IMG/VR virus record: IMGVR_UViG_3300032893_000048
Span: 1 to 59,936 of that record
Reading direction: 5' to 3' (one strand)
DNA from: a virus
Taxonomy: Duplodnaviria > Caudoviricetes
Length of the DNA stretch: 59,936 nt
The position numbers and the translations under genes are program-made. Below the pieces are notes generated by a model. It searched no databases, was not told the origin of the DNA, and was given only the letters and a program-made list of their open reading frames with translations. Of this stretch, positions 1,150-56,276 are shown piece after piece; the stretch's first letter is position 1, and the number at the start of each line of letters is the position of its first letter.

Positions 1150-1222
1150 ATTCGATGGGTGGGATTCGAACCCACATCTCCGTGCTAATAGGAAGGCTGC
1201 CCATTACCCCACCACCTATCAG
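1150..1222 (-). pseudogene. Degenerate tRNA-like element
   Basis: Perfect T-arm GTGGG-TTCGAAT-CCCAC; acceptor, D and anticodon arms imperfect. Confidence 0.35.
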
Positions 1223-4555: not shown

Positions 4556-5086
4556 CTACTCCCCGAGGAGGTGGTTGGTGATGTGGCCCATCGCGGCCTC
4601 GACGCAGCGCTCCGCCTCGGTGAGGTCCCCGTCAATCGGTAGGGCCCGCATCTCACAGCGGATTTGGTGCAGCCGCTTCCACAGGCCGTGGTAGGTGCTG
4701 ACCGTGGTGACCTTGGGCGCCAAGGGCACCGGAGGCGGCGGGGACGGGATCGGATCGGCATGCCGCAGGAAGGCCATACCCAGCTGCTCCGGCTCGGCCG
4801 GCTTGGGTTTGACCTGCCGCTTGGCGGCCAGGTGCTTGCCGCGCGCGAGCAGCACCTCGATTGGTGCGTGGTCGGTGATCTTGTGCACGCTAAGCCGCCC
4901 ACGGTAACCGATGACCTCGGTCACGCCCTCCCGGTTCAAGGTAGTCAGCGCGGCGCTGATGGCGCTGGAGCTCTCATCTTTGAAATCGACCCGCTTGGCG
5001 ATGTCAGCGGAGGTGAATTTATACCCGATCTTGTGTTGTTTTACCCACCTGAAAACCCGGTAGGATAGGGACATCTTACGGCTCAT
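4556..5086 (-). CDS. Putative winged-HTH DNA-binding protein
   Basis: FTSADIAKRV...SAISAALTTLNREG pattern; first gene after a promoter. Confidence 0.5.
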   Translation of the reverse strand: MSRKMSLSYRVFRWVKQHKIGYKFTSADIAKRVDFKDESSSAISAALTTLNREGVTEVIGYRGRLSVHKITDHAPIEVLLARGKHLAAKRQVKPKPAEPEQLGMAFLRHADPIPSPPPPVPLAPKVTTVSTYHGLWKRLHQIRCEMRALPIDGDLTEAERCVEAAMGHITNHLLGE

Positions 5087-5123
5087 TGAACTACTCCCCT
5101 CAGCTTGTTAGTAGGTGAATCGC

Positions 5124-6588: not shown

Positions 6589-7284
6589 TTAGCCTCCGTT
6601 GATCAGCAGCCGCTGGGCGGCCGCGCCATTGATGGGTTTGTGGATGGACTCACCGAGGGCCGCCTGCTGCCCCGCTTGGTAGCCTTGATAGCCAAGCCGA
6701 CGCTTTTGCACGCCTGCCTCCTTGCCGCTCGAAACCGCCTTGATGTGGTCGTCGATGAGGGCCTTGACCTCGTCCCCCATGGCGAACTCATGGACCGTCT
6801 TCCGGATCGTGGCCACCCAGCCGTGGCAAAAGCCGTCGGCCTCCATCGTCTTGGCCTGCCGTGAGAGGTGCTCGGGCAGGTTGGTGACGAAGCGGGCCCG
6901 TGAGCTCATGAGCTTCCGCTGCAGCACCTCGGTCGTGTAGGCGGCCAACGGCACCTGGGTCTTCAGGCCGACGATCGTGTAGTGACCGAAGACCTCCTCG
7001 TTGTGGCTGTAGGACTTGGCCCACATCAGCCTGCAACCGAACGCCCGGGCCACGGTGTTGAGGAGGGCGAGCTCCCAATCCTTGATCCGCGAAACGCTGG
7101 CCTTGGACTTGACGGTGGCCTCCCCGATCTCGGCCCGGCCGAGGTCCGCTTGGCTCACGCCATGCAGGTCCATCAGCTTCTGGGCCTGCCGCAGCGCGGC
7201 CGCTGCCTCATGGGGCTCGGGTGACTGCGACAGCGCGAGGCACTTCTTGATCTTGTTGAGAATCTTGTCGTCGAGTTGCTTCAT
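6589..7284 (-). CDS. DUF2786-domain protein
   Basis: N-terminal KILNKIKKCLALSQSPEPHEAAAALRQAQKLM; C-terminal FCHGW and GYQAG. Confidence 0.85.
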   Translation of the reverse strand: MKQLDDKILNKIKKCLALSQSPEPHEAAAALRQAQKLMDLHGVSQADLGRAEIGEATVKSKASVSRIKDWELALLNTVARAFGCRLMWAKSYSHNEEVFGHYTIVGLKTQVPLAAYTTEVLQRKLMSSRARFVTNLPEHLSRQAKTMEADGFCHGWVATIRKTVHEFAMGDEVKALIDDHIKAVSSGKEAGVQKRRLGYQGYQAGQQAALGESIHKPINGAAAQRLLINGG

Positions 7285-7308
7285 TGGTCGTTCCCCTCAG
7301 CAAGGAAG

Positions 7309-7555: not shown

Positions 7556-7654
7556 CTCCTCAGCAGGTCCGATCGTAACTCGATCGTGGGTTCATCATAA
7601 TCCGTTGATGCCCGCTTGTAAATAGGTAGTTTTAACTTGTGACACTGTGTTACA
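7556..7654 (-). promoter_or_regulatory. Early promoter cassette: TGTGAC-N5-GTTACA box, TTTACA-N17-TATGAT, CGATCG hairpin, ACCTGCTGAGGAG RBS
   Basis: Near-identical cassettes at 8401-8497, 46937-47034 and 51773-51874. Confidence 0.85.
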
Positions 7655-8400: not shown

Positions 8401-8497
8401 TCTCCTCAGCAGGTCCGATCGTTAATCGATCGTAGGTCTACTATAGCCCGCCGACGGATGTTTGTAAATAGCTAGTTTTAACATGTGACATTCGTTG
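8401..8497 (-). promoter_or_regulatory. Early promoter cassette TTTACA-N17-TATAGT
   Basis: -35 at 8463-8468, -10 at 8440-8445, same hairpin and RBS motif. Confidence 0.85.
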
Positions 8498-8944: not shown

Positions 8945-8977
8945 GGCACCATCTCCTCAGCAGGTTGAACCAGGCCC

Positions 8978-9542: not shown

Positions 9543-9679
9543 GCAAGGTTCCACCCCAGCATCGCCGCCTTCCAGGTCATGTGAGCGATCCAACCGGTAA
9601 CAATCACGGTCAGCACCGAGGTGAGGAATATACCAATGATCCACCCGAGCACCTGGGCCCGCGCTTTAAAGTCCTTCAT
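9539..9679 (-). CDS. Small membrane protein
   Basis: Hydrophobic ORF overlapping its neighbours. Confidence 0.55.
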   Translation of the reverse strand: MKDFKARAQVLGWIIGIFLTSVLTVIVTGWIAHMTWKAAMLGWNLA

Positions 9680-9956
9680 TGAGCACCTCCACCAGCTTGT
9701 CTTGGTACCACTTGCACTTCCCGGCATCGAGGCTCGCGGGCCCCTTCTTCCCCAGCCGCCAGGTGTACTTCATCACCTGCCCCTGCAGAAAGGCGATGAA
9801 CCCCTGCCGCCCCAGCGCCGCCCGGATCGCATCGATGCACTCGATTCCGCCCTCGTCCTCATCGGACTTGTAGTGCGGCGGGTGATTAACCATCACCGAT
9901 GAGACCAACTGCCTTTCGGCCTCGTCATCTGCCCCAACACGTGGGTTCGGGATCAT
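9666..9956 (-). CDS. DUF3310 (SaV / T7 gp1.7-like) protein
   Basis: VNHPPHY...IECIDAI...GQVMKYTWR.GKK...D..K..WY. Confidence 0.9.
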   Translation of the reverse strand: MIPNPRVGADDEAERQLVSSVMVNHPPHYKSDEDEGGIECIDAIRAALGRQGFIAFLQGQVMKYTWRLGKKGPASLDAGKCKWYQDKLVEVLNEGL

Positions 9957-10639
9957 CCTTCATGCTCCTTCTCGTCACTTGGAAAGTAGTTAAACAAATC
10001 AGCCAGCGCCGGGGCCTCATCCAGCAGGGCCGCCCGGCATTGCAGGGCCACCTCCCGATGCTCGAGCTGGGTCCCGTTGCCCGTGCGCAGCTGGATGTAG
10101 TGAATCCAGCTGCGCAGCGAGCCAGCCATGTACAGCCGGGAGGGCGTCATCCCCTCCGGCAGCACCGTCCGCGCCACCTCCTTCGCGATCCCCTTCTCCA
10201 GGGCGGCCTGGTAAGCCAACCGCGTGGCTGCCGCCACCTGGGCCTGGGTCTCCAACCACCACGCGTCCAGGGCCTCATCATCCGTGGTGAGGCTGCTCTG
10301 CCGGTTCTTGAGGTCTTGCAACCGGGTGCCGCGGAACACCGGCTCATCAGCAACCACCGCGTACCGCTGGCTGAACTCCTGGAAGCTGAAGGATCGATGC
10401 CGGAGAATCTGCCTAGCGATGTCCCGGGTCGTGATGATCTCCATCACCACGTGAGCCATCTCGAACGGCGACCAGTGCTGATGGTTGACCAGGTACCGCA
10501 ACAGCTTCCCGGCCGTGCCATGGTTCAGCTGGTTGGTCGGGTTCGACGCCCGGGCGCAGTAGGCCACCAGGGCCTGGGCATCCATGACCACGTCATCGAT
10601 GATGGCGTTGGTAATTCCAATCACCTTGACCGAGCTCAT
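9953..10639 (-). CDS. thyX: Flavin-dependent thymidylate synthase
   Basis: HWSPFE and the RHRSFSFQEFSQRY signature; ATG at 10639. Confidence 0.97.
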   Translation of the reverse strand: MSSVKVIGITNAIIDDVVMDAQALVAYCARASNPTNQLNHGTAGKLLRYLVNHQHWSPFEMAHVVMEIITTRDIARQILRHRSFSFQEFSQRYAVVADEPVFRGTRLQDLKNRQSSLTTDDEALDAWWLETQAQVAAATRLAYQAALEKGIAKEVARTVLPEGMTPSRLYMAGSLRSWIHYIQLRTGNGTQLEHREVALQCRAALLDEAPALADLFNYFPSDEKEHEG

Positions 10640-11141: not shown

Positions 11142-11185
11142 ATGCGGCGAGTTTTCAGCAGGTCCTCGCCTGAACTGCCGGGCCC

Positions 11186-11214
11186 AATCTATCTCGCCCG
11201 AGAAAGCTTGTAAA
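11186..11214 (-). promoter_or_regulatory. sigma70-type promoter TTTACA-N17-TAGATT
   Basis: Member of the promoter family. Confidence 0.7.
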
Positions 11215-11225
11215 TAGTGATTTTA

Positions 11226-13319
11226 CTAATATTTCGCCGCCTTCGGCTGCTGACCGTTGTTCCAGTCATCGATGTGCTTCACGACGTCACCCACCGAGGC
11301 CCGCATCCAATGGTCGATGCGCCGAACCGCATAGAACCGGCTTTGCGAGCCGTCACCCACCCGCACCGGCTTCCCGTGCACGACCTGACGCACCCCGGCC
11401 CGTGTAAGCTCGCGACCCAGGCCGTTGGCCGTGGTGCCGGTCTTCCCGATGGGGTCGTACAGCTGCAGCAGCTCCTTGGTCGTGAACAGGTCCTTCCGGA
11501 TGGGGATGTCGCCCACCTTGAGCACGTAGTCGGGGTTCATGATCAGCTGCCGGCACCAGGCCCCGAGGTCCGACTGCACGTTGGCAATCATCCGCTCCTT
11601 CGCCGCCGTCTTGAAGGCGGGCGCCGCTGGGTTGAAGTCACCCAAGTCCAGCTTGAGCAGGTGCTCAAACACGGCCTGACTTCCCCCGCTGTCCAACCAG
11701 AGGTCGTACTCGACGTAGAACTCCTCCGGCAGCGGTTGGACCTGCACCTCGTGGATGAAGAACCGCCGGTCGTCGTCCTCCAAGAAGAACGCGTCCGGGT
11801 GGTTGGAGGTGAACAGGTAATTGATGCAATCCGGCACGACGTAGCTGGGGACGTACTTGGGGTTGACGCGGAGTTCCCGCTGGGTGATGAGCTTCTTGAG
11901 CATGTCCGCGTCCTGCCGCCGATTGGACCCGGTCACATCATCACCCAGCACGAACTGCTTGCCCTCCGCCCACTCGTTGAAGCTGCTGTGCAGGTCGTTC
12001 TGGGTGATCTCGGTGAAGTTCTCCCCGTAGATGCGGCCCAGCGTGTACCCCACCAACGATTTGCCCGTGCCGTGGCGGATGCCATGCAGCACCGCCGACG
12101 TAAACATCTTCACTCCCGGGTGCTGGAGGGGGTAAGCACACCAGCGGAGGAACCACTCCTTGGCCGCCGGCTCCGCGCTGCTGAACAGGTGGTCGATCAA
12201 TTGAAGGAACAGCTTGACATCACCCTTCTTCGGTTGCACCCCCCACCCCGGCCAGATGTTGAAGAGCAGGGTCCCGTTGGCGATCAGGGTTGGCTGCCCC
12301 GGGCGGTAGGTGAGCTGACCCGCCTCGGCCCGCAGCGGCCATCTGAGCCAAGCGGCGGCGGCCGGGACCGGCTTGTACTGCACGACCCCATCCTTATAGA
12401 CCCCCTCCTGGTAGATCGACGGCGCCTCCAGGTGGTCGCGGAAGGCACCTGGCGCCGCCTTGAACCGGGTGCGTTGGTCCAAGACCAGCCCCGGGTTCTT
12501 GATGTAGATGTACTGCTCGTTCAGCTTCCACAGCACCGCGGTGAGACCCAGGGGCTCGGCCCCCTGCAGCAGGTTTGCAAACTGCTGGGTGGCATTGGGG
12601 GCGCCGACCAGGAAGTCGTCCAGGCCCGTCTTGTCGACGGTGGGCAGCGCCGGCAGGTTCACCAGGTGGCAGAAGGCGCCGCGGCGTTGAAGCTCCGCCG
12701 CCAGCTCCCGCAGGGCCGCGCTCACGCTGGGGTTTGACCTAAGATCGGAATCGAAGCAGAGGTACACGTGGCGCCGGGACCAGGTCACCACCTCCAGGGA
12801 GGGCAGCCAGGTCACCCCATTACCAACCGACCGCCAGGACCACACGCCACCGAGGCCGATGGTGGGGAACCCCTCCTTGCAGGCCTTGGCGGCCTTGAGC
12901 TCCCCCTCCGTGATGATCAGGGGTTGGTCGGGGTCATTGATCAACTGCGGCCAGGCGACGCTGGCAGGGTAATAGGCAACCGGCACGGTGCCGGGCGGCT
13001 GCACGTAGCGGGTCACCTTCTTGTCGGTGACGGCATCGAAGCTGGTGTCGGCTTCCAGGTAGCGGAGGCGGTAGTAGGGTGGACCCTCAGGCCAATCTTG
13101 GGCTGGCTTGCCGTGGGGATCGAGGTAATCGAAGCGAAGGCTGCCCAGCGGCTTGAACGCGGGGCTGAGGGCGCGGACCTTGGTTCCGGGGACCCAGGTA
13201 ATCCTGAGCCGCTTGGCGTCCTCTAATGTTAGTCCCGAACTTTGGAGCTTGGTCTCTGCGAGTTCCCGCAGCTTGCCGTCAGGTGACGACGGCCCCTTCT
13301 TGGTCGTTGTCCGAGCCAC
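11226..13319 (-). CDS. Primase-helicase (DUF3854-type TOPRIM plus SF3/NrS-1-like helicase)
   Basis: IITEGELKA, GLGGVW, CFDSD, GLDDF; Walker A GIRHGTGKS. Confidence 0.9.
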   Translation of the reverse strand: MARTTTKKGPSSPDGKLRELAETKLQSSGLTLEDAKRLRITWVPGTKVRALSPAFKPLGSLRFDYLDPHGKPAQDWPEGPPYYRLRYLEADTSFDAVTDKKVTRYVQPPGTVPVAYYPASVAWPQLINDPDQPLIITEGELKAAKACKEGFPTIGLGGVWSWRSVGNGVTWLPSLEVVTWSRRHVYLCFDSDLRSNPSVSAALRELAAELQRRGAFCHLVNLPALPTVDKTGLDDFLVGAPNATQQFANLLQGAEPLGLTAVLWKLNEQYIYIKNPGLVLDQRTRFKAAPGAFRDHLEAPSIYQEGVYKDGVVQYKPVPAAAAWLRWPLRAEAGQLTYRPGQPTLIANGTLLFNIWPGWGVQPKKGDVKLFLQLIDHLFSSAEPAAKEWFLRWCAYPLQHPGVKMFTSAVLHGIRHGTGKSLVGYTLGRIYGENFTEITQNDLHSSFNEWAEGKQFVLGDDVTGSNRRQDADMLKKLITQRELRVNPKYVPSYVVPDCINYLFTSNHPDAFFLEDDDRRFFIHEVQVQPLPEEFYVEYDLWLDSGGSQAVFEHLLKLDLGDFNPAAPAFKTAAKERMIANVQSDLGAWCRQLIMNPDYVLKVGDIPIRKDLFTTKELLQLYDPIGKTGTTANGLGRELTRAGVRQVVHGKPVRVGDGSQSRFYAVRRIDHWMRASVGDVVKHIDDWNNGQQPKAAKY

Positions 13320-13325
13320 ATCTAT

Positions 13326-13515
13326 TCCTTCTTGTCATTTTGACTTCAGCGCTTGCTTCTACCCGACCCCCAGCGAGCGGGTACCCTCATGCCAAGCAGC
13401 TGCGCAAAGGGACGTCGACCGGGCCAGACCTTGCTGAGGGGTTGCGGCGCTTTTGACAAGAAGGAGCCTGCCGGCGGAGGGCGGGTCTTCTAGGGCTGAC
13501 GCGGCCCGGTCGACG
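13326..13515 (-). ncRNA. Structured primase leader / antisense regulatory RNA (candidate)
   Basis: 13-bp closing stem 13413-13425 with 13503-13515 begins at the predicted TSS; internal segments are complementary to RBS motifs. Confidence 0.6.
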
Positions 13516-13522
13516 AGCTAGC

Positions 13523-13551
13523 ACTCTAGCCTAACTGATTCCAGCTGTAAA
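13523..13551 (-). promoter_or_regulatory. sigma70-type promoter TTTACA-N17-TAGAGT (primase leader)
   Basis: Member of the promoter family. Confidence 0.75.
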
Positions 13552-13573
13552 TATGATCATTAAGTCATTGATC

Positions 13574-14092
13574 CTAGTAGCTGCTCCCAGCCGGTTTGAT
13601 CATCTTGAGGGGTGTGGTCCCCAGCTGCTTGGCCGCCTCGACGATGTGAGGCAGGGAAAGGGTGAGGACATCCTCCATCCGATCCACGACCACGTTGAAT
13701 GAGACCAGGCCGTGGTTCTTATAGAGCAGCACACGAAGTGATTGGACAGACCGTCCAGCCAGCTTAGCGGCCTCCTCCCAGCTGGCATACCATTCGTTCC
13801 CCGACGTGCGATAAAGCACATGGATTCGCGCTAACTCTGCCCGGGTGAGGATCGTGGTACGAAATCGCTTGGTAATTGGAGCGGATAAAGTTGGGTTCGC
13901 GGCCCGCCAAGCAGCGGATCGTCGATCCCCGAAAAGGTCCTCCTCGATGCCAAATTCAGCGGCAATTGCGATGATTTGAGCGGATGCGCTTGCCCGTGAA
14001 TTGGCCGGCATCGCATTGATCAGGTCGATGAAGTGTGACTTAAGTACTTCAAATGATTGGTCTTTGGTCTTGGTTCTTGGGGCTTTGGCCAT
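13574..14092 (-). CDS. Putative DNA-binding protein
   Basis: 172-aa ORF; YASWEEAAKLAGRSVQSLR is HTH/NUMOD1-like. Confidence 0.55.
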   Translation of the reverse strand: MAKAPRTKTKDQSFEVLKSHFIDLINAMPANSRASASAQIIAIAAEFGIEEDLFGDRRSAAWRAANPTLSAPITKRFRTTILTRAELARIHVLYRTSGNEWYASWEEAAKLAGRSVQSLRVLLYKNHGLVSFNVVVDRMEDVLTLSLPHIVEAAKQLGTTPLKMIKPAGSSY

Positions 14093-25816: not shown

Positions 25817-28555
25817 GTGGATATGTTTGTACAAATCACCAAGGTGGACGAGGCACGACGGGAGGTCTACGGTCGCGCGGTCCAGGAGGTCCCCGATAAG
25901 GCCGGGGAGATTTTTGACTATGCCACCAGTAAGCCCAACTTCGAGAAGTGGTCGGCTGATGTGGAGAAGGATTCCGGTGGCCGCTCACTGGGTAACGTGC
26001 GCTCCATGCATGGGAACGTCGCGGCTGGCAAGGTCATCAAGATCAACTTCAACGACGATGAGAAGGCCATCGACATCGGGGCCAGGATCGTCGACGACAA
26101 CGAGTGGCAGAAGGTGCTGGAGGGTGTCCACACCGGCTTCTCCATCGGCGGCAGCTACGGCAAGACCTGGCAGGACGGTAAGCTGAAGCGCTACACGGCC
26201 ATCCCCAGCGAGATCAGCTTGGTGGATCGTCCCTGCATTCCCACCGCCAAGTTCTTTCAGGTGGTGAAGATGGACGGCAGCACCGAGGACCGGGCATTCA
26301 TGGAGAAGGGCGATAAGCCCGGCCACGAGTTTCACGGGAATCAGTATAAGGAAAGTACTAATGCTGCCTTTGATGCCACTGCGAAAGCAAAAGAGGCATC
26401 TGCCAAAGCACACTCTGAAAAGACAGTAGAAGCGCATAAAGAGGCGATTACGGCTCATCGCGAGGCTAGCGAAGCTCATTATCAGGCGGCGAGGGTAAAC
26501 GCCTTGAGCACCGATAGACCACCTAAGGAGAAAGAGGCACGGGAAATTACTCACACCTCCCTGCGCCGTTATCACGACAGCGAAGTGGATAGCCATCAAG
26601 ATGCTATTCGCCGCATTGGAAAGACCGAATCCTCTGACGGCCTCGAAAAAGGTGACCATCCCGGTCATGAGTTCCATGGGAACCAGCACTCAGGTGGCGG
26701 CAGTGGTAAGGAAAGCGACGCCAACCGTGGACTTGCTCACAGCGCGGCTAGCAACCGCGCTGAGGCTGCCAGCGAGGCCGCGAAGAGCACCACGGGCAGC
26801 AATAAAGATAAGGCCCAAGCGCAATATCACGCGGCTACCGAGCACGCCAAGGCGAGCGCGGAGCACCGGGCCACGGGGAACCACGATAAGGCGGACTACC
26901 ACGCCCAGAAGGCGGCGGATCACGCCAAAGCAGGTAAGGACTATGAGCGCTCCGCTAAGAAAGCTGAGGAAGATGAGATGAATAAGGGCGACAAACCTGG
27001 GCATGAGTTCCATGGGAATCAGCATACCAAGGGCGCAGCAGGCGTGATCGATTCCAAGGACCACCTTAATTGGACTGGGAATCATGGTAAAGGTTCGCTT
27101 AAGGTGAGCGGCGACAAGATTACTTTGCAGGATTCTCACTATTCGCGTAGTAACGCTGAGCGTGCAGTGAGTGATGCAAAAAAGGATTGGAGTCCTGGTG
27201 GGATGTACCACTCCTATATGAAGGAACAAGGCTATGACGTATCACATGTCTCATCGAATATTGATGAGAAAGGTGATCGCTCTGTTGTATCACACACCAT
27301 TCGTGTAAATGGTCCAGCTGAAAAATCTGAGGAACCCGAAATGACGAAGTTGAGCGAGCAGGAGGTTTATGCCTCCGTGCAAAAGAGCATTATGGATGGC
27401 GCCATCACGCAGGACGACGTCCTTCGGGTACTGAGCAACCTGGCCAAGGGTAAGAAGGAAACCAAGGCATCCGATAAGGATGACGGCGAGGATGCCGACA
27501 AGCAGGACGATAAGAAGGATGATGAGGACGTCGATAAGAAGGACGACGCCGACAAGCAGGATGATGCTGATAAGAAGGACGATGCCGACAAGAAGGACGA
27601 CGGCAAGAAGGAAGGCGAGATCGAGAAGGTTGCGGCTCGCGACGACGTCGACCCCAAGGAGGGGAAGGAAAAGTACGGCGACGTCGAGTTCGCCGATGCC
27701 AAAAACAAGAAGTATCCGATCGACACGGAGGAGCATATCCGCGCCGCGTGGAACTACATCAACAAGGAGAAGAACGCGGGCAAATACGACGCCGAGGACC
27801 TGACCGCCATCAAAGCTAAGATCGTGAGCGCCTGGAAGTCCAAGATCGATAAGGAAGGTCCGCCCAGCGCCGCCGAGAAGAGTGAGGCCGTGACCCTGAA
27901 GAAGGGCATGTACACGGTCGCGGCGCTCGCCAACCTGCTGCAGCAAATTCGCAACATGGTGGACAACGTGAGCGCAGAGGCCGCAAGTGAGGGCGACAAC
28001 TCGACCCTGCCGGACCAGCTGATGAGCTGGCTGAAGTCGGGCGTGGATGTGCTCACGGACATGGTCGGTGAGGAAACGTCGGAGCTCGTGGGTGACGAGA
28101 ACGACGGGGACCTCCCGGTGCTGGCGATGAGCCAGGCCATCGGTGAACTTGCTAAGGCCGGCGCCCGCAACAGCAAGGCGGACCTTGACAAGCTCCAGCA
28201 GATGCATGACCTATGCAAGGACCTCGGGGCCAACTGCGGAGGCGGCATGGACAAGGCCGAGGGCGGTGACGCTCTCAACAAGGCACTGGGTCAGGTCAAC
28301 GAACTGAAGAAGACGGTTACCGAGCTCACCACCGCGCGTGATGAGCTCCAGAAGCGTGTTACTGAGTTGGAAGCGCAGCCTGAGGCACCGAAGGCCGTGC
28401 TGAAGAGCATCGACAAGGGCAGTGACATCCTCACTGCTGTTGATAGTGGAGATAAGGTTGAACCCATTACCAAGCGTGATGGTTCAGTTGACGAAACCGC
28501 CACGGCGTTCAAAAAGATTCTCGCCACCGGCGGTAAGCACATCTCGCGGATTTAA
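25817..28555 (+). CDS. Prohead protease (HK97/XkdF-like) plus tagged cargo modules, DUF6582-like domain and scaffold
   Basis: NVRSMH, GFSIGG, EISLVDRPC; FADAKNKKYPIDTEEHIRAAWNYI; C-terminal coiled coil; directly upstream of the capsid gene. Confidence 0.88.
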   Translation: MDMFVQITKVDEARREVYGRAVQEVPDKAGEIFDYATSKPNFEKWSADVEKDSGGRSLGNVRSMHGNVAAGKVIKINFNDDEKAIDIGARIVDDNEWQKVLEGVHTGFSIGGSYGKTWQDGKLKRYTAIPSEISLVDRPCIPTAKFFQVVKMDGSTEDRAFMEKGDKPGHEFHGNQYKESTNAAFDATAKAKEASAKAHSEKTVEAHKEAITAHREASEAHYQAARVNALSTDRPPKEKEAREITHTSLRRYHDSEVDSHQDAIRRIGKTESSDGLEKGDHPGHEFHGNQHSGGGSGKESDANRGLAHSAASNRAEAASEAAKSTTGSNKDKAQAQYHAATEHAKASAEHRATGNHDKADYHAQKAADHAKAGKDYERSAKKAEEDEMNKGDKPGHEFHGNQHTKGAAGVIDSKDHLNWTGNHGKGSLKVSGDKITLQDSHYSRSNAERAVSDAKKDWSPGGMYHSYMKEQGYDVSHVSSNIDEKGDRSVVSHTIRVNGPAEKSEEPEMTKLSEQEVYASVQKSIMDGAITQDDVLRVLSNLAKGKKETKASDKDDGEDADKQDDKKDDEDVDKKDDADKQDDADKKDDADKKDDGKKEGEIEKVAARDDVDPKEGKEKYGDVEFADAKNKKYPIDTEEHIRAAWNYINKEKNAGKYDAEDLTAIKAKIVSAWKSKIDKEGPPSAAEKSEAVTLKKGMYTVAALANLLQQIRNMVDNVSAEAASEGDNSTLPDQLMSWLKSGVDVLTDMVGEETSELVGDENDGDLPVLAMSQAIGELAKAGARNSKADLDKLQQMHDLCKDLGANCGGGMDKAEGGDALNKALGQVNELKKTVTELTTARDELQKRVTELEAQPEAPKAVLKSIDKGSDILTAVDSGDKVEPITKRDGSVDETATAFKKILATGGKHISRI
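26306..26347 (+). repeat. KGDKPGHEFHGNQY tag, copy 2
   Basis: Follows the protease domain. Confidence 0.9.
26648..26689 (+). repeat. KGDHPGHEFHGNQH tag, copy 3
   Basis: Seen in translation. Confidence 0.9.
26984..27025 (+). repeat. KGDKPGHEFHGNQH tag, copy 4
   Basis: Seen in translation. Confidence 0.9.
27470..27612 (+). repeat. Asp/Lys tandem repeat (DADKKD)n in the scaffold region
   Basis: DKKDDADKQDDADKKDDADKKDD; imperfect 18-nt DNA tandem. Confidence 0.85.
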
Positions 28556-46642: not shown

Positions 46643-46930
46643 TCAGGCGGCCACCTCCTTGGTGAACCCGATGTACCGCATGCGGCTCGAGGCACCGCGA
46701 CCATTACCACGCATGCCGTGGTAGCCGTAATCAGAGATGTCGCGGGCTGTGTAGGTGTCCTGACCGGGCTTCGTCCAGATGTACACCACGCCGCGGTGAG
46801 TCTTGTTGCCGGTGGTGGTCACCAGGTCGATCCCGCCAACCATGACCAGCGTCTCGCCGCGGTCGTTGGTGTTCCACTTGCTGGCTTCGACCTCCTTGGT
46901 CACCCCGTTCAACGTCAGCTTGATCTTCAT
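46643..46930 (-). CDS. Early hypothetical protein
   Basis: First gene after a promoter cassette. Confidence 0.75.
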   Translation of the reverse strand: MKIKLTLNGVTKEVEASKWNTNDRGETLVMVGGIDLVTTTGNKTHRGVVYIWTKPGQDTYTARDISDYGYHGMRGNGRGASSRMRYIGFTKEVAA

Positions 46931-46936
46931 TTCTGT

Positions 46937-47034
46937 CCCCTCAGCAGGTCAGATCGTTAATCGATCGTGAGTCTAGTATAAACCTCCGACGGATGCCTGT
47001 AAATAGGTAGTTTTAACTTGTGACAATGTGTTAC
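46937..47034 (-). promoter_or_regulatory. Early promoter cassette TTTACA-N17-TATACT
   Basis: -35 at 46998-47003, -10 at 46975-46980, upstream box at 47019-47034. Confidence 0.88.
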
Positions 47035-51772: not shown

Positions 51773-51874
51773 CTCCTCAGCAAGGTTCCGGTCGTTAGTC
51801 GACCGTGGTTAGATCATAGCCTCAGCACACCAACTTGTAAACACCTATTTTTGAATTAGAGACAATGTGTTACA
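51773..51874 (-). promoter_or_regulatory. Promoter cassette TTTACA-N17-TATGAT upstream of the nucleotide-modification operon
   Basis: -35 at 51836-51841, -10 at 51813-51818, CGGTCG hairpin, ACCTTGCTGAGGAG RBS. Confidence 0.85.
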
Positions 51875-54348: not shown

Positions 54349-56276
54349 ACGGTCTTTCCTTTCTTGTCAACATCGATGAGCGAATCCCAGTTGGTCTCTG
54401 AGACCGCGCCCTCACTTAACATCGGCACATCGAACTCAATGCTCTCCATCGCCTGACGAAGCACCTGCATCTCACCCTTTGCGAGCTTCTTCGGCACCGA
54501 GACGGTGATCTGATCATGCACATTGAGGATGATCTTGGCCTCCGGGTGCTTGACCGCGTGGTAGCGGATCAGTGCCTCCTTGGTGCAGTCCGCAGCGGAG
54601 CCCTGAATGAGCACGTTCACCAGCTTATAATCGAACTCCCGGATGCGGCCCTCGACCAGCCGCGGTGGCTCGCAGTAGTACTCACGGCCGCCCCATGTGC
54701 GCACAGGCTGATTGGTCTTGGCCCGCAGCTTCATGTCCTGATACATCGCCTTGAGGCCGGGGTAAAGCAACAGAATGGCCTTCTTCAGCTCGCCGGCCTC
54801 CTCCACCGACATATCGTTCTTTGCTGCCAGCTTGCCCACCCCCATGCCATAGATCAGGCCCAGGTTGGTGTTCTTCACCGGCTTGCGCTCGTAGTGCTTC
54901 CCCATCTTGGCCAGCTCGGCCTTCGCATAATCGTGAAAATCGATCCACGGGTCCTCGAGGTACTTCTGAAGCAGCGATCCGCCGTCGAAGTGAGCGAGGA
55001 TGCGCGGTTCCTGCTGGCTGTAGTCGCGGTCGATCAGCACGTGGCCCTTGAACGGGATGATGTAACTCCGCACCCGTGGCAGCGCCGGCATGGTCTTGAA
55101 TGGGCATTTCGGCAACCCCTTCTTCGGCGCCTCGTGGTGAAAGATCGGCGAGAACTCCTTGGGGATGTTCTGGAAGTTTGGAGTGCTGGAGAGGCGCCCG
55201 GTGCGGGTTCCCACGCTGTGGTCGCCTGACGGCGCCTTCGTCTGGTTCCAGGTGGTGAAGATCAGGCCACCCGATCGCCGTGCAATGGCTAGCCACGGCC
55301 GCATGAAGGTGTTGAGGCAGGTGCTCAGCTGGGTCCGGTACTTCAGCATCGCCAGCAGCGGCTTATCCGTGACCGCGATCAGCAGGGCCTCCTTGTTGGT
55401 CTGGAACTTCCCGGTCGGGGTCCGTGGCACCTGGTCCGCATCGGCCTTGCCGGCAGCGATGAGGGCCGCCATCAGCTGCTCACCGGAATCGAGGTTGAAC
55501 GACGTATCCTTAGCGCTAATACCCAGGGTCTTCGTGATCCACTTGTTGATGTTGCCCAACCAAACTGAATAGGAGGCGACATCGATCTCCAGCTGACGCA
55601 GGTCAACCGGCAGGCCCTGGCGCTCCATCTCCAGCAGGATGGGGAGCAGCTTCAGCTCGCGCTCGTAGGCCGCCAGCATCCCGCGCTCGACGGTCTTCGG
55701 GTAGAGCAGGTCGAACAGCTGGGCGGTGCGGTCGACGTCACCGATCGCGTAAGGCCCCACCACGGTGGAACCCGGGGCGAAGGCGATGTACCGACCAAAG
55801 TAACGCTCGGAGTTCTTGGACCGGCTGATCTTGACCCCCTTAATGGGCTGGTGCTTGATCAGCCACTCACCCACGGCGTCCTGCTCCTCCGGCGGCAGGC
55901 CCAGGAGCCGCTCCGCGCTGGGCTTGAGGCTCAGCTCGGTTTGATGTGGATCGTCAAGGAACAGCAGGAACATGGTGTCATGAATCGCCACCTGCCCCAG
56001 GTTGACACCCATGTGGGTCTCAGCCACGTCCAGGTCAAACTTCATATTCTGACAGAGCACGCCGTCCTTATGGGCCGCAGCCTTCAGCAGCACCTCCTTG
56101 GCCTCGTCCCACGTCGAGTTGTTGTCGGTGGGATGGCCCCAGGCATAGTACTTGCCCGGCTTGCCTGGCCACTTGACCGCCACCCCCACCGGCACCGGCG
56201 GATAAGCAGGCCGGCCCTCGATGCCCATCGTCTCGAAGTCGACCGTGACCGGCTTTGGAATCCTGTCCTTTTTCAT
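54345..56276 (-). CDS. polA: DNA polymerase family A with 3'-5' exonuclease
   Basis: VDFET exo I, TGRLSS.PNFQNIP, DYSQQEPR, RKPVKNTNLGLIYG, IQGSAAD, VHDQ. Confidence 0.97.
   Translation of the reverse strand: MKKDRIPKPVTVDFETMGIEGRPAYPPVPVGVAVKWPGKPGKYYAWGHPTDNNSTWDEAKEVLLKAAAHKDGVLCQNMKFDLDVAETHMGVNLGQVAIHDTMFLLFLDDPHQTELSLKPSAERLLGLPPEEQDAVGEWLIKHQPIKGVKISRSKNSERYFGRYIAFAPGSTVVGPYAIGDVDRTAQLFDLLYPKTVERGMLAAYERELKLLPILLEMERQGLPVDLRQLEIDVASYSVWLGNINKWITKTLGISAKDTSFNLDSGEQLMAALIAAGKADADQVPRTPTGKFQTNKEALLIAVTDKPLLAMLKYRTQLSTCLNTFMRPWLAIARRSGGLIFTTWNQTKAPSGDHSVGTRTGRLSSTPNFQNIPKEFSPIFHHEAPKKGLPKCPFKTMPALPRVRSYIIPFKGHVLIDRDYSQQEPRILAHFDGGSLLQKYLEDPWIDFHDYAKAELAKMGKHYERKPVKNTNLGLIYGMGVGKLAAKNDMSVEEAGELKKAILLLYPGLKAMYQDMKLRAKTNQPVRTWGGREYYCEPPRLVEGRIREFDYKLVNVLIQGSAADCTKEALIRYHAVKHPEAKIILNVHDQITVSVPKKLAKGEMQVLRQAMESIEFDVPMLSEGAVSETNWDSLIDVDKKGKTV

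Follow-up and report, generated by a model that had tools for sequence, protein, structure and literature searches.

A conserved leader RNA domain of the c4/CI kind immediately preceding the primase genes of many related phages

The primase gene of the phage recorded in IMG/VR as IMGVR_UViG_3300032893_000048 is preceded by a leader sequence whose first part shows a structured RNA domain that recurs ahead of many related primase genes. This complete phage record of 59,936 nucleotides (the window in the following) was analyzed around positions 13326-13551 of the minus strand, and the region probably represents a promoter followed by the leader of about 198 nt of the primase mRNA. In the explanation that we regard as probable as a whole, the leader contains an RNA domain in which an exposed loop (element A) would contact hairpin loops further downstream and a second element (B) would occlude the translation start of the primase, according to the two-box logic of the antisense RNAs CI of P4 and c4 of phage P1. 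On comparative grounds the element is real and stands for a family of phage RNAs of the c4/CI kind that is widely conserved and has not been catalogued before. An earlier note on this DNA had proposed a stem-enclosed RNA with two antisense elements in the leader; this core idea is supported by sequence comparison as far as the primase is concerned, since the closing stem (P1) and the pairing of B with the ribosome-binding site (RBS) of the primase are conserved and covary in relatives.

The sigma-70-type promoter is present where the earlier note had placed it and is the sole promoter-like site in the region 13200-13700 (0.0 expected from shuffled sequences). Further promoters of the same class are found at 11214, 8468, 7622 and 5152. 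The open reading frame (ORF) of the primase starts with GTG at position 13319, the AAGGA of its Shine-Dalgarno (SD) sequence ends 6 nt upstream, and the primases of relatives align from residue 1.

The set of homologous primases comprises 80 IMG/VR loci, Stenotrophomonas phage AXL3, Pseudoxanthomonas phage PW916, the uncultured record MW202621 and a few contigs of metagenome-assembled genomes (MAGs); in species genomes relatives of the primase are found on six MAG contigs only. A covariance model (R1) was built from a MAFFT alignment of 35 non-redundant leaders with the window among the training sequences. It detects the domain at 71 of the 87 related primase loci (59 distinct sequences), including AXL3, PW916, MW202621 and two MAG contigs, and in every case the match precedes the gene and is on the same strand as the primase. 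In AXL3 the domain is located at about 46,690-46,800 (-). The 16 loci that it misses belong mostly to the most distant primases or are loci for which little or no upstream sequence is available. In the window, as a training sequence, R1 finds a single copy with 54.5 bits, the next best match reaching 16.9 bits.

The upstream 230 nt of the relatives share almost no sequence with the window, and one architecture is common to them. A promoter is followed by a long stem with phage-specific arms, by an invariant CCUCAGC(AAG) just before the 3' arm and by a tail of ACC and pyrimidines; then come a hairpin with a GCUGAG loop, a hairpin with a GCUGAGG loop and the SD sequence of the primase. An equivalent promoter precedes P1 in most relatives, and in the window as well as in most of these its -10 box ends 6-8 nt before P1. 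The consensus of the tail is ACACCUUUU with two nearly invariant C, and the tail of the window reads GUCCCUUUG. A blastn search with the leader against 50,697 phage records gave no match; the family becomes visible only through its short conserved cores and its structure. A scan of IMG/VR with a gapped DNA pattern returned mostly chance matches, and one of the 80 listed loci (the L002 contig) passed the covariance model. Extra "anti" copies at locus L055 were recognized as ordinary RBSs of genes on the opposite strand and were discarded.

The domain, i.e. about the first 100 nt of the leader, would form a three-way-junction RNA composed of the 13-bp stem P1, the interior element B and the small hairpin P3 (coordinates of all features are given in Table 1). 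The perfectly complementary 13-nt arms of P1 had already been described in the earlier note and could be confirmed. RNAalifold recovers P1 from the MAFFT alignment of the 35 leaders with compensatory changes at 10 of the 10 predicted pairs. Pairs were also counted for P1 (11 pairs) and the 3-bp P3 on this independent MAFFT alignment. Here, 87.0% of the cells are paired compared with 33-39% when the partners are slid, double changes occur in 120 cells compared with 20-35, and the observed covariation score was reached by none of 500 shuffles. On the alignment fitted to R1 the proportion of paired cells is 95.2%. All three closing pairs of P3 covary (93.9% of cells paired), and the CCUCAGC core of loop A is invariant across 35 to 37 leaders. 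The isolated window domain folds with -44.4 kcal/mol (z -2.47), and the isolated domains of eight members show P1, an inner hairpin and an exposed loop A with z between -2.5 and -6.6. The middle hairpin P2 is visible in single-sequence folds only, whereas P1 and P3 have covariation support. From P3 and the exposed loop A in the conserved fold it follows that element A is a hairpin loop. The complementarity that the earlier note had ascribed to this element stands; A is no free strand, its 14-mer corresponding to the loop plus the closing pairs of P3.

The interior of the domain on the 5' side of loop A is, in each lineage, complementary to the start region of its own primase, and the segments concerned are unrelated between lineages. 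Interior and start-region segments are CUCCUUCUUGUCA and UGACAAGAAGGA in the window, AAUCUCCGGU and ACCGGAGAU at L020, GACUCCAGU and ACUGGAGUU at L036, CUGUCAGA and UCUGACAG at L048 and L051, and AGCCCCA and UGGGGCU at L080. Cognate and non-cognate duplexes of B with the start region were compared for 24 representatives with SD regions less than 60% identical. The cognate mean amounts to -18.57 kcal/mol versus -13.71 kcal/mol for non-cognate combinations and was matched or beaten in none of 20,000 permutations; in a decoy region (-60 to -32) of the same representatives no cognate advantage was found. At locus L005 the RNA and the primase are separated by an inserted HNH-like ORF, and it is the SD region of this ORF that B matches there. 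The covariation of B with the start region at the RNA level is the strongest evidence for translational control of the following gene by the domain. The claimed complementarity of B with the SD region of the window primase was reproduced over its full length (Table 1).

The extra ORF of L005 (L005:2073-2497, also present in L035) is Cys-rich, and its stop codon overlaps the primase start (TAAATG). A different extra ORF lies between the RNA domain and the primase in L031 and L066. Within the window, seven near-copies of CGAyAAGmAGGA with a spacing of 12-24 nt occur at 27496-27612 (+) inside an ORF of the plus strand, and this coding repeat inflates the number of approximate matches to the complement of B.

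The most conserved partners of loop A were missed by the earlier note. They are the GCUGAG and GCUGAGG hairpin loops of the same primase leader; in relatives the loop of hairpin 1 is GCUGAG, and the downstream hairpin loops in general display GCUGRG(G). In the whole-leader alignment the columns free of variation are those of CCUCAGC and, within the second downstream hairpin, those of the GCUGAGG core, and the pairing of loop A with GCUGAGG is the consensus helix that RNAalifold finds in this alignment. The flanks of A and of the site in hairpin 2 (site 2) covary, with C-G replaced by U-A at the next position, and the helix can be extended by 5-6 further pairs in L080, L027 and L012. At both downstream sites the flanks vary and yet stay complementary (mean z -3.08 for hairpin 1 and -1.87 for hairpin 2, n = 32 each).

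Taken as a mechanism, loop A would make a fast loop-loop contact with the downstream hairpin loops. This contact would bring B onto the translation initiation region of the primase, and B would then block ribosome binding at the primase start. The domain could act in cis on each mRNA or, if it is released, in trans. From the observed fold, complementarities, conservation and covariation we infer repression as the direction of control, the kissing step and any processing of the RNA.

Table 1. Positions of the promoter, the leader elements, the primase gene and the early-leader motifs in the window (SD, Shine-Dalgarno sequence)
Feature	Position	Strand	Description
Sigma-70-type promoter	13523-13551	(-)	TTTACA-N17-TAGAGT; predicted start ~13515-13518 at the foot of P1
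Structured RNA domain	13405-13517	(-)	P1 encloses P2/B and P3/A; then pyrimidine-rich tail UCCCUUUG
P1, 5' arm	13503-13515	(-)	13 nt, 100% complementary to 3' arm; 77 nt between arms
P1, 3' arm	13413-13425	(-)	perfect inverted repeat; covariation in relatives
Element B	13454-13465	(-)	UCCUUCUUGUCA; 12/12 complementary to 13326-13337, covering AAGGA of primase SD
P3 hairpin	13428-13442	(-)	9-nt loop CCUCAGCAA (13431-13439) = core of element A; pairs 13440:13430, 13441:13429, 13442:13428
Downstream hairpin 1	13384-13411	(-)	assigned by position; window loop GCAGCUGCUUG; 3' arm UGAGGG complements A; manual reading, degenerate
Downstream hairpin 2	13361-13382	(-)	stem ACCCG/CGGGU; loop carries GCUGGGGG (13367-13374), pairs with loop A via one G.U
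Primase translation initiation region	13317-13337	(-)	UGACAAGAAGGA, then AAUAGAU, then GUG
Primase-helicase gene	11226-13319	(-)	697 amino acids (aa); DUF3854, DUF5906 and VapE-like domains
Motif UCCUUGCUGAGGGG	7293-7306	(-)	SD of ORF 6589-7284 (DUF2786/DUF7168); 13 nt complementary to A; -28.1 kcal/mol
Motif ACCUUGCUGAGGAG	51773-51786	(-)	SD of 117-aa ORF, TTTACA promoter upstream; -23.9 kcal/mol
Motif GACCUGCUGAGGGG	46937-46950	(-)	SD of 95-aa ORF (46643-46930); -28.5 kcal/mol
Motif ACCUGCUGAGGAG	8953-8965	(-)	SD of 80-aa ORF; -19.9 kcal/mol
Motif ACCUGCUGAGGAG	8402-8414	(-)	SD of 92-aa ORF; -23.0 kcal/mol
Motif ACCUGCUGAGGAG	7556-7568	(-)	SD of 72-aa ORF; -23.0 kcal/mol
Partial motif GCUGAGGGG	5096-5104	(-)	SD of ORF 4556-5086; -20.5 kcal/mol

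Besides its partners in the own leader, loop A matches a motif at the start of early genes. The complement of the 14-mer of A has five matches with at most two mismatches in the window, compared with 0.60 expected, and none of 100 shuffles reaches five. With indels allowed all sites that the earlier note had listed (7293, 51775, 7558, 8404, 8955 and 46937) were recovered, the first two at 7293-7307 and 51773-51787, each of them 6-9 nt upstream of an ATG, and its two partial sites at 5096 and 11155 were found again at about 5098-5104 and 11152-11164. The motif is part of an early cassette of the minus strand that begins with TTTACA-N17-TAnnnT and continues with a short leader, in which a small hairpin is frequent, with ACC(U)UGCUGAGG(A/G)G, with 6-9 nt and with the ATG. 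Four of the seven motif start sites have the full cassette, two have the promoter without the hairpin (8955, 5104) and one has no promoter (7295); six of the seven motif genes are the first gene behind a TTTACA-type promoter. The ORFs behind the motif are mostly small and have no protein-family match.

Small hairpins of the sequence CGAUCG-AUUAA-CGAUCG are located just upstream of YUGCUGAGG at ~8416-8432, 7570-7586 and 46951-46967 (-), and a compensating version, GGUCG-ACUAA-CGACC (CGGUCG/CGACCG), is located at 51790-51804 (-). Similar CACGGUC...GACCG hairpins are seen upstream of the motif in relatives and in AXL3. Right behind the stop codon of the primase, at 11146-11214 (-), a further TTTACA-17-TAGATT promoter stands upstream of a hairpin, GGCGAG/CUCGCC, with ACCUGCUGAAAA, an incomplete copy of the motif, in its loop; then comes a two-codon ATG-TGA ahead of the next gene.

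In the window A forms duplexes of -19.9 to -28.5 kcal/mol with seven of the 51 start regions of the early strand, compared with a median of -10.6 kcal/mol, and the start regions of late genes pair with A more weakly than -15 kcal/mol. In each of five complete relatives TGCTGAGG is found in 7-11 copies versus 0-2 copies of the reversed control, with a concentration on one strand in four of the five, and many motif matches lie between the -10 box and the ATG in every genome examined including AXL3. The early-leader motif is common to the nearer relatives as a whole, and in most of the complete relatives examined loop A is complementary to YUGCUGAGG of promoter-proximal early leaders. A real pairing with early leaders is favoured by three details. 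The AAG in loop A, which hardly varies, mostly has no partner in hairpin 2 and pairs with CUUG in early leaders; AXL3 has CAAAGG in its loop and one leader with CCUUUG; and the loop of MW202621 reads CCUCAGCAGC and six motif-bearing RBSs of this record read CUGCUGAGG, none of them CUUGCUGAGG. Since the loop is complementary to YUGCUGAGG(A/G)G in seven early leaders, these mRNAs may in addition be repressed by the RNA or may titrate it, which we hold to be a good possibility somewhat short of probable. Action in trans on early mRNAs is plausible in this sense. The earlier note had suggested that many early genes are silenced at once by a trans-acting RNA, or that early mRNAs bound at A free the primase RBS as in a switch, and had also thought of a carrier state; all of these would be extrapolations from the matches. 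We consider it possible, at rather low probability, that an RNA of about 100 nt works as an RNA-only timer, its loop being directed against the leader or SD motif of essentially every early transcript of the host polymerase (by shut-off or titration) and its element B gating the primase. If this were true, virulent siphophages would link the end of their early programme to the start of replication without any repressor protein.

Several observations weigh against the proposed explanation in its cis or trans form. The minimum free energy fold of the full 218-nt window leader lacks P1 (z -1.95); in it the 5' arm of P1 (13498-13516) pairs with the start-codon region (13300-13323) at -27.5 kcal/mol. 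This latter pairing was rejected as a conserved feature, the cognate and non-cognate means of the 24 representatives being -10.42 and -10.05 kcal/mol. In the window hairpin 1 is without GCUGAG, and site 2 needs a G.U pair. For two leaders of the AXL3 type, 19 and 12 of the 24 RNAs bind the SD region better than the cognate RNA does. In the window B forms a stronger duplex (-25.7 kcal/mol) with the start region of ORF 9666-9956 (9957-9986 (-), GUGACGAGAAGGAGC) than with that of the primase (-19.6 kcal/mol) or of the exonuclease (-17.5 kcal/mol). The exonuclease SD region (54358-54369) had been named in the earlier note as a second target of B; the match is real and weak, with two mismatches or one bulge, and is surpassed by that of ORF 9666-9956. 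No Rfam 15 family scores the leader at gathering or permissive thresholds. Concerning the trans layer, A and its targets are nearly invariant, and the pairing with early mRNAs therefore rests on few covarying positions. The distant members G006 and G007 have kept the sites in their own leader and have few early-leader motifs, so a trans layer, should it exist, may be confined to part of the lineages. Finally, no RNA run carrying the sequence is listed among public sequencing runs, only two DNA runs of wetland metagenomes.

These points have to be considered together with explanations of a different kind. One of them, to which we assign a tentative place, is a purely cis-acting translational operator, in which P1, P3, the two downstream hairpins and the pairing of B with the SD sequence would belong to one folded or pseudoknotted leader and the loop-loop pairings would be tertiary contacts. 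There would be no function in trans, and the early motif would be shared for another reason, e.g., as a favoured RBS context spread together with promoter cassettes. In line with such an operator, all conserved partners of A and B are located within the same leader, no terminator-like site was scored after P1 when one was sought, the distant members retain these own-leader sites and have few early-leader motifs, and the early promoters with their leaders resemble repeated cassettes. It leaves aside, however, that the AAG of loop A finds its partner in the CUUG of early leaders, that the loop variant of MW202621 matches the early RBSs of its own genome, and that the motif survives in early leaders despite the wide divergence of the remaining leader sequence.

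The missing terminator bears also on a reading that we find rather improbable, namely that P1 and the pyrimidine- or U-rich tail are a conditional terminator or a processing site that generates a short RNA and reduces read-through into the primase. Behind P1 the relatives have an almost constant tail, ACCUUUU, and short RNAs derived from the 5' untranslated region (5'UTR) are, according to the available part of PMC10914365, common in virulent Pseudomonas phages, one of them preceding the primase/helicase gene of PAK_P3. Yet P1 encloses 50-80 nt and is no simple hairpin, the window tail has three U only, and the covariation of B with the start region would be left unexplained. Such an attenuator would be compatible with the two-box explanation and does not exclude it.

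That GCUGAGG is read by an RNA-binding translational regulator of the phage or host, loop A being a decoy or anti-operator that masks the sites, appears improbable. T4 RegA is the comparison case for such a regulator. Conservation of the motif goes far beyond what pairing alone would require, and the motif is shown in loops, as protein operators often are. On the other side, no protein came up as a candidate, covariation between the flanks of A and those of site 2 follows a helix, and the exact reverse complement of the motif likewise does not vary and lies in a loop, for which the pairing model has a direct explanation. Very improbable, finally, is a DNA-level element, i.e. a double-stranded operator working in either orientation, a case for which the earlier note had allowed: the single inverted copy in the primase leader among many direct ones could be one more operator, but the motif is strand-biased in four of the five complete relatives scanned, keeps a fixed distance to start codons at RBSs and not to promoters, and its inverted copy sits in helices that covary as RNA.

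Three further observations concern the surroundings. No small plus-strand ORF starts after the inverted motif, where one was sought. At L050:4450-4561 the "drum" RNA family (RF02958; cut-off 43 bits) has a weak match of 29 bits, which overlaps the primase match at the 3' end of the latter. At 1151-1218 (-) of the window the Rfam tRNA model scores 32 bits (cut-off 29), and ARAGORN calls no tRNA in the whole window.

Among known systems the C4 RNAs are closest in architecture. Their consensus comprises a closing stem of 17 bp, a pair of hairpins, a junction and a tail that contains CC and ends in CCcuu, and the leader domain shows the same layout with a long closing stem of its 5' and 3' ends around two hairpins. 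The CC-containing tail of C4 RNAs is a determinant for RNase P. The Rfam model RF01695 (C4), with a gathering threshold of 45 bits and 74.9 bits for P4 CI as positive control, gave no match at E<=10 in 13250-13620 or in the whole record and none at E<=5 in the loci of nine relatives. Two recognition elements are found as well, since B faces the primase start region and A the downstream hairpin-loop sites of the same transcript. In P4 CI, as we computed, the loop of the second hairpin is the exact complement of one box further downstream in the same transcript, and the junction is that of another; one of the two boxes abuts GGAGG and an AUG, and copies of both are also present upstream. The P4 RNA is likewise embedded in the leader of an operon that contains, at its end, a primase gene (alpha), and it resembles the domain described here in the long closing stem around two hairpins, possibly in the following CC-containing tail, and in a hairpin loop plus a second element directed against downstream boxes in the same antiparallel order, one of them at the SD sequence. 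The analogy with P4 CI and P1 c4 drawn in the earlier note therefore holds for the architecture and the two-box logic.

There are also differences. The C4 model does not score the leader element and R1 does not score P4. The target here is the primase start region itself, and the primases of P4 and of the window are linked by a weak P-loop match only (E 0.064). P4 has the upstream box set seqA, and an upstream copy of the target boxes, of the type of P4 seqA or P1 a1/b1, is absent from the leader transcript here, which is predicted to start at P1; no such boxes would be transcribed since the -10 box ends so close to the stem. P4 CI works via transcription termination in a temperate satellite, according to the part of PMC4825925 available.

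For c4 of the phages P1 and P7 the likeness lies in a leader-encoded antisense RNA (c4 in front of icd-ant). Citron and Schuster reportedly described in 1990 two recognition elements of c4 with targets on the same transcript, one of them at the RBS. Copies of a1/b1 lie upstream of c4, and c4 is matured by RNase P. In contrast with the family described here, c4 serves lysogenic immunity, and there is no similarity in sequence or model. The leader-encoded c4 is needed for full repression of the downstream icd-ant operon, as stated in the available part of PMC8198154. A functional parallel is offered by plasmids. CopA/CopT of plasmid R1 and Inc RNA/repZ of ColIb-P9 are kissing-loop antisense systems on rep leaders in which the translation start is occluded; short loop-loop recognition in the leader of a replication gene together with occlusion of the translation start is also what we propose here. 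Their antisense RNAs, however, come from the opposite strand, whereas in the primase leaders element and targets share the same strand and the same transcript.

Virulent Pseudomonas phages provide the third comparison. Putzeys et al. 2024 (PMC10914365), in the portion of the paper available, describe their 5'UTR-derived short RNAs as candidate non-coding RNAs and report two-mode termination for 34 of 42 5'UTR terminators. These candidates are similar to the domain in being short structured RNAs that share the 5' end of an mRNA, in one case before a primase/helicase gene, and differ in that no antisense logic is reported for them in that portion. At the PAK_P3 locus the best match of R1, not significant at E 0.092, is on the opposite strand. 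A description of the RNA family itself was not found in the main texts of the literature searched, and the words "promoter" and "antisense" are absent from the AXL3 paper.

Antisense RNAs of the c4/CI type that reside in a leader are known from temperate elements (P1, P7, P4), which they serve as immunity devices. In the primase leaders their architecture and two-box logic recur in a covariation-supported RNA family that is absent from Rfam and immediately precedes the primase genes of the cultured phages AXL3 and PW916 and of a large group of uncultured phages. AXL3 is reported to be virulent and without lysogeny genes (PMC7504290, in the part available), and the family would thus offer a concrete and testable case of RNA-based control of the translation of a replication gene in a phage reported as virulent. 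As AXL3 grows in the laboratory, with S. maltophilia D1585 as its published host, the proposal is directly testable. Because its recognition loop also matches the motif of early leaders, the family may moreover reveal a multi-target phage small RNA that times the early programme.

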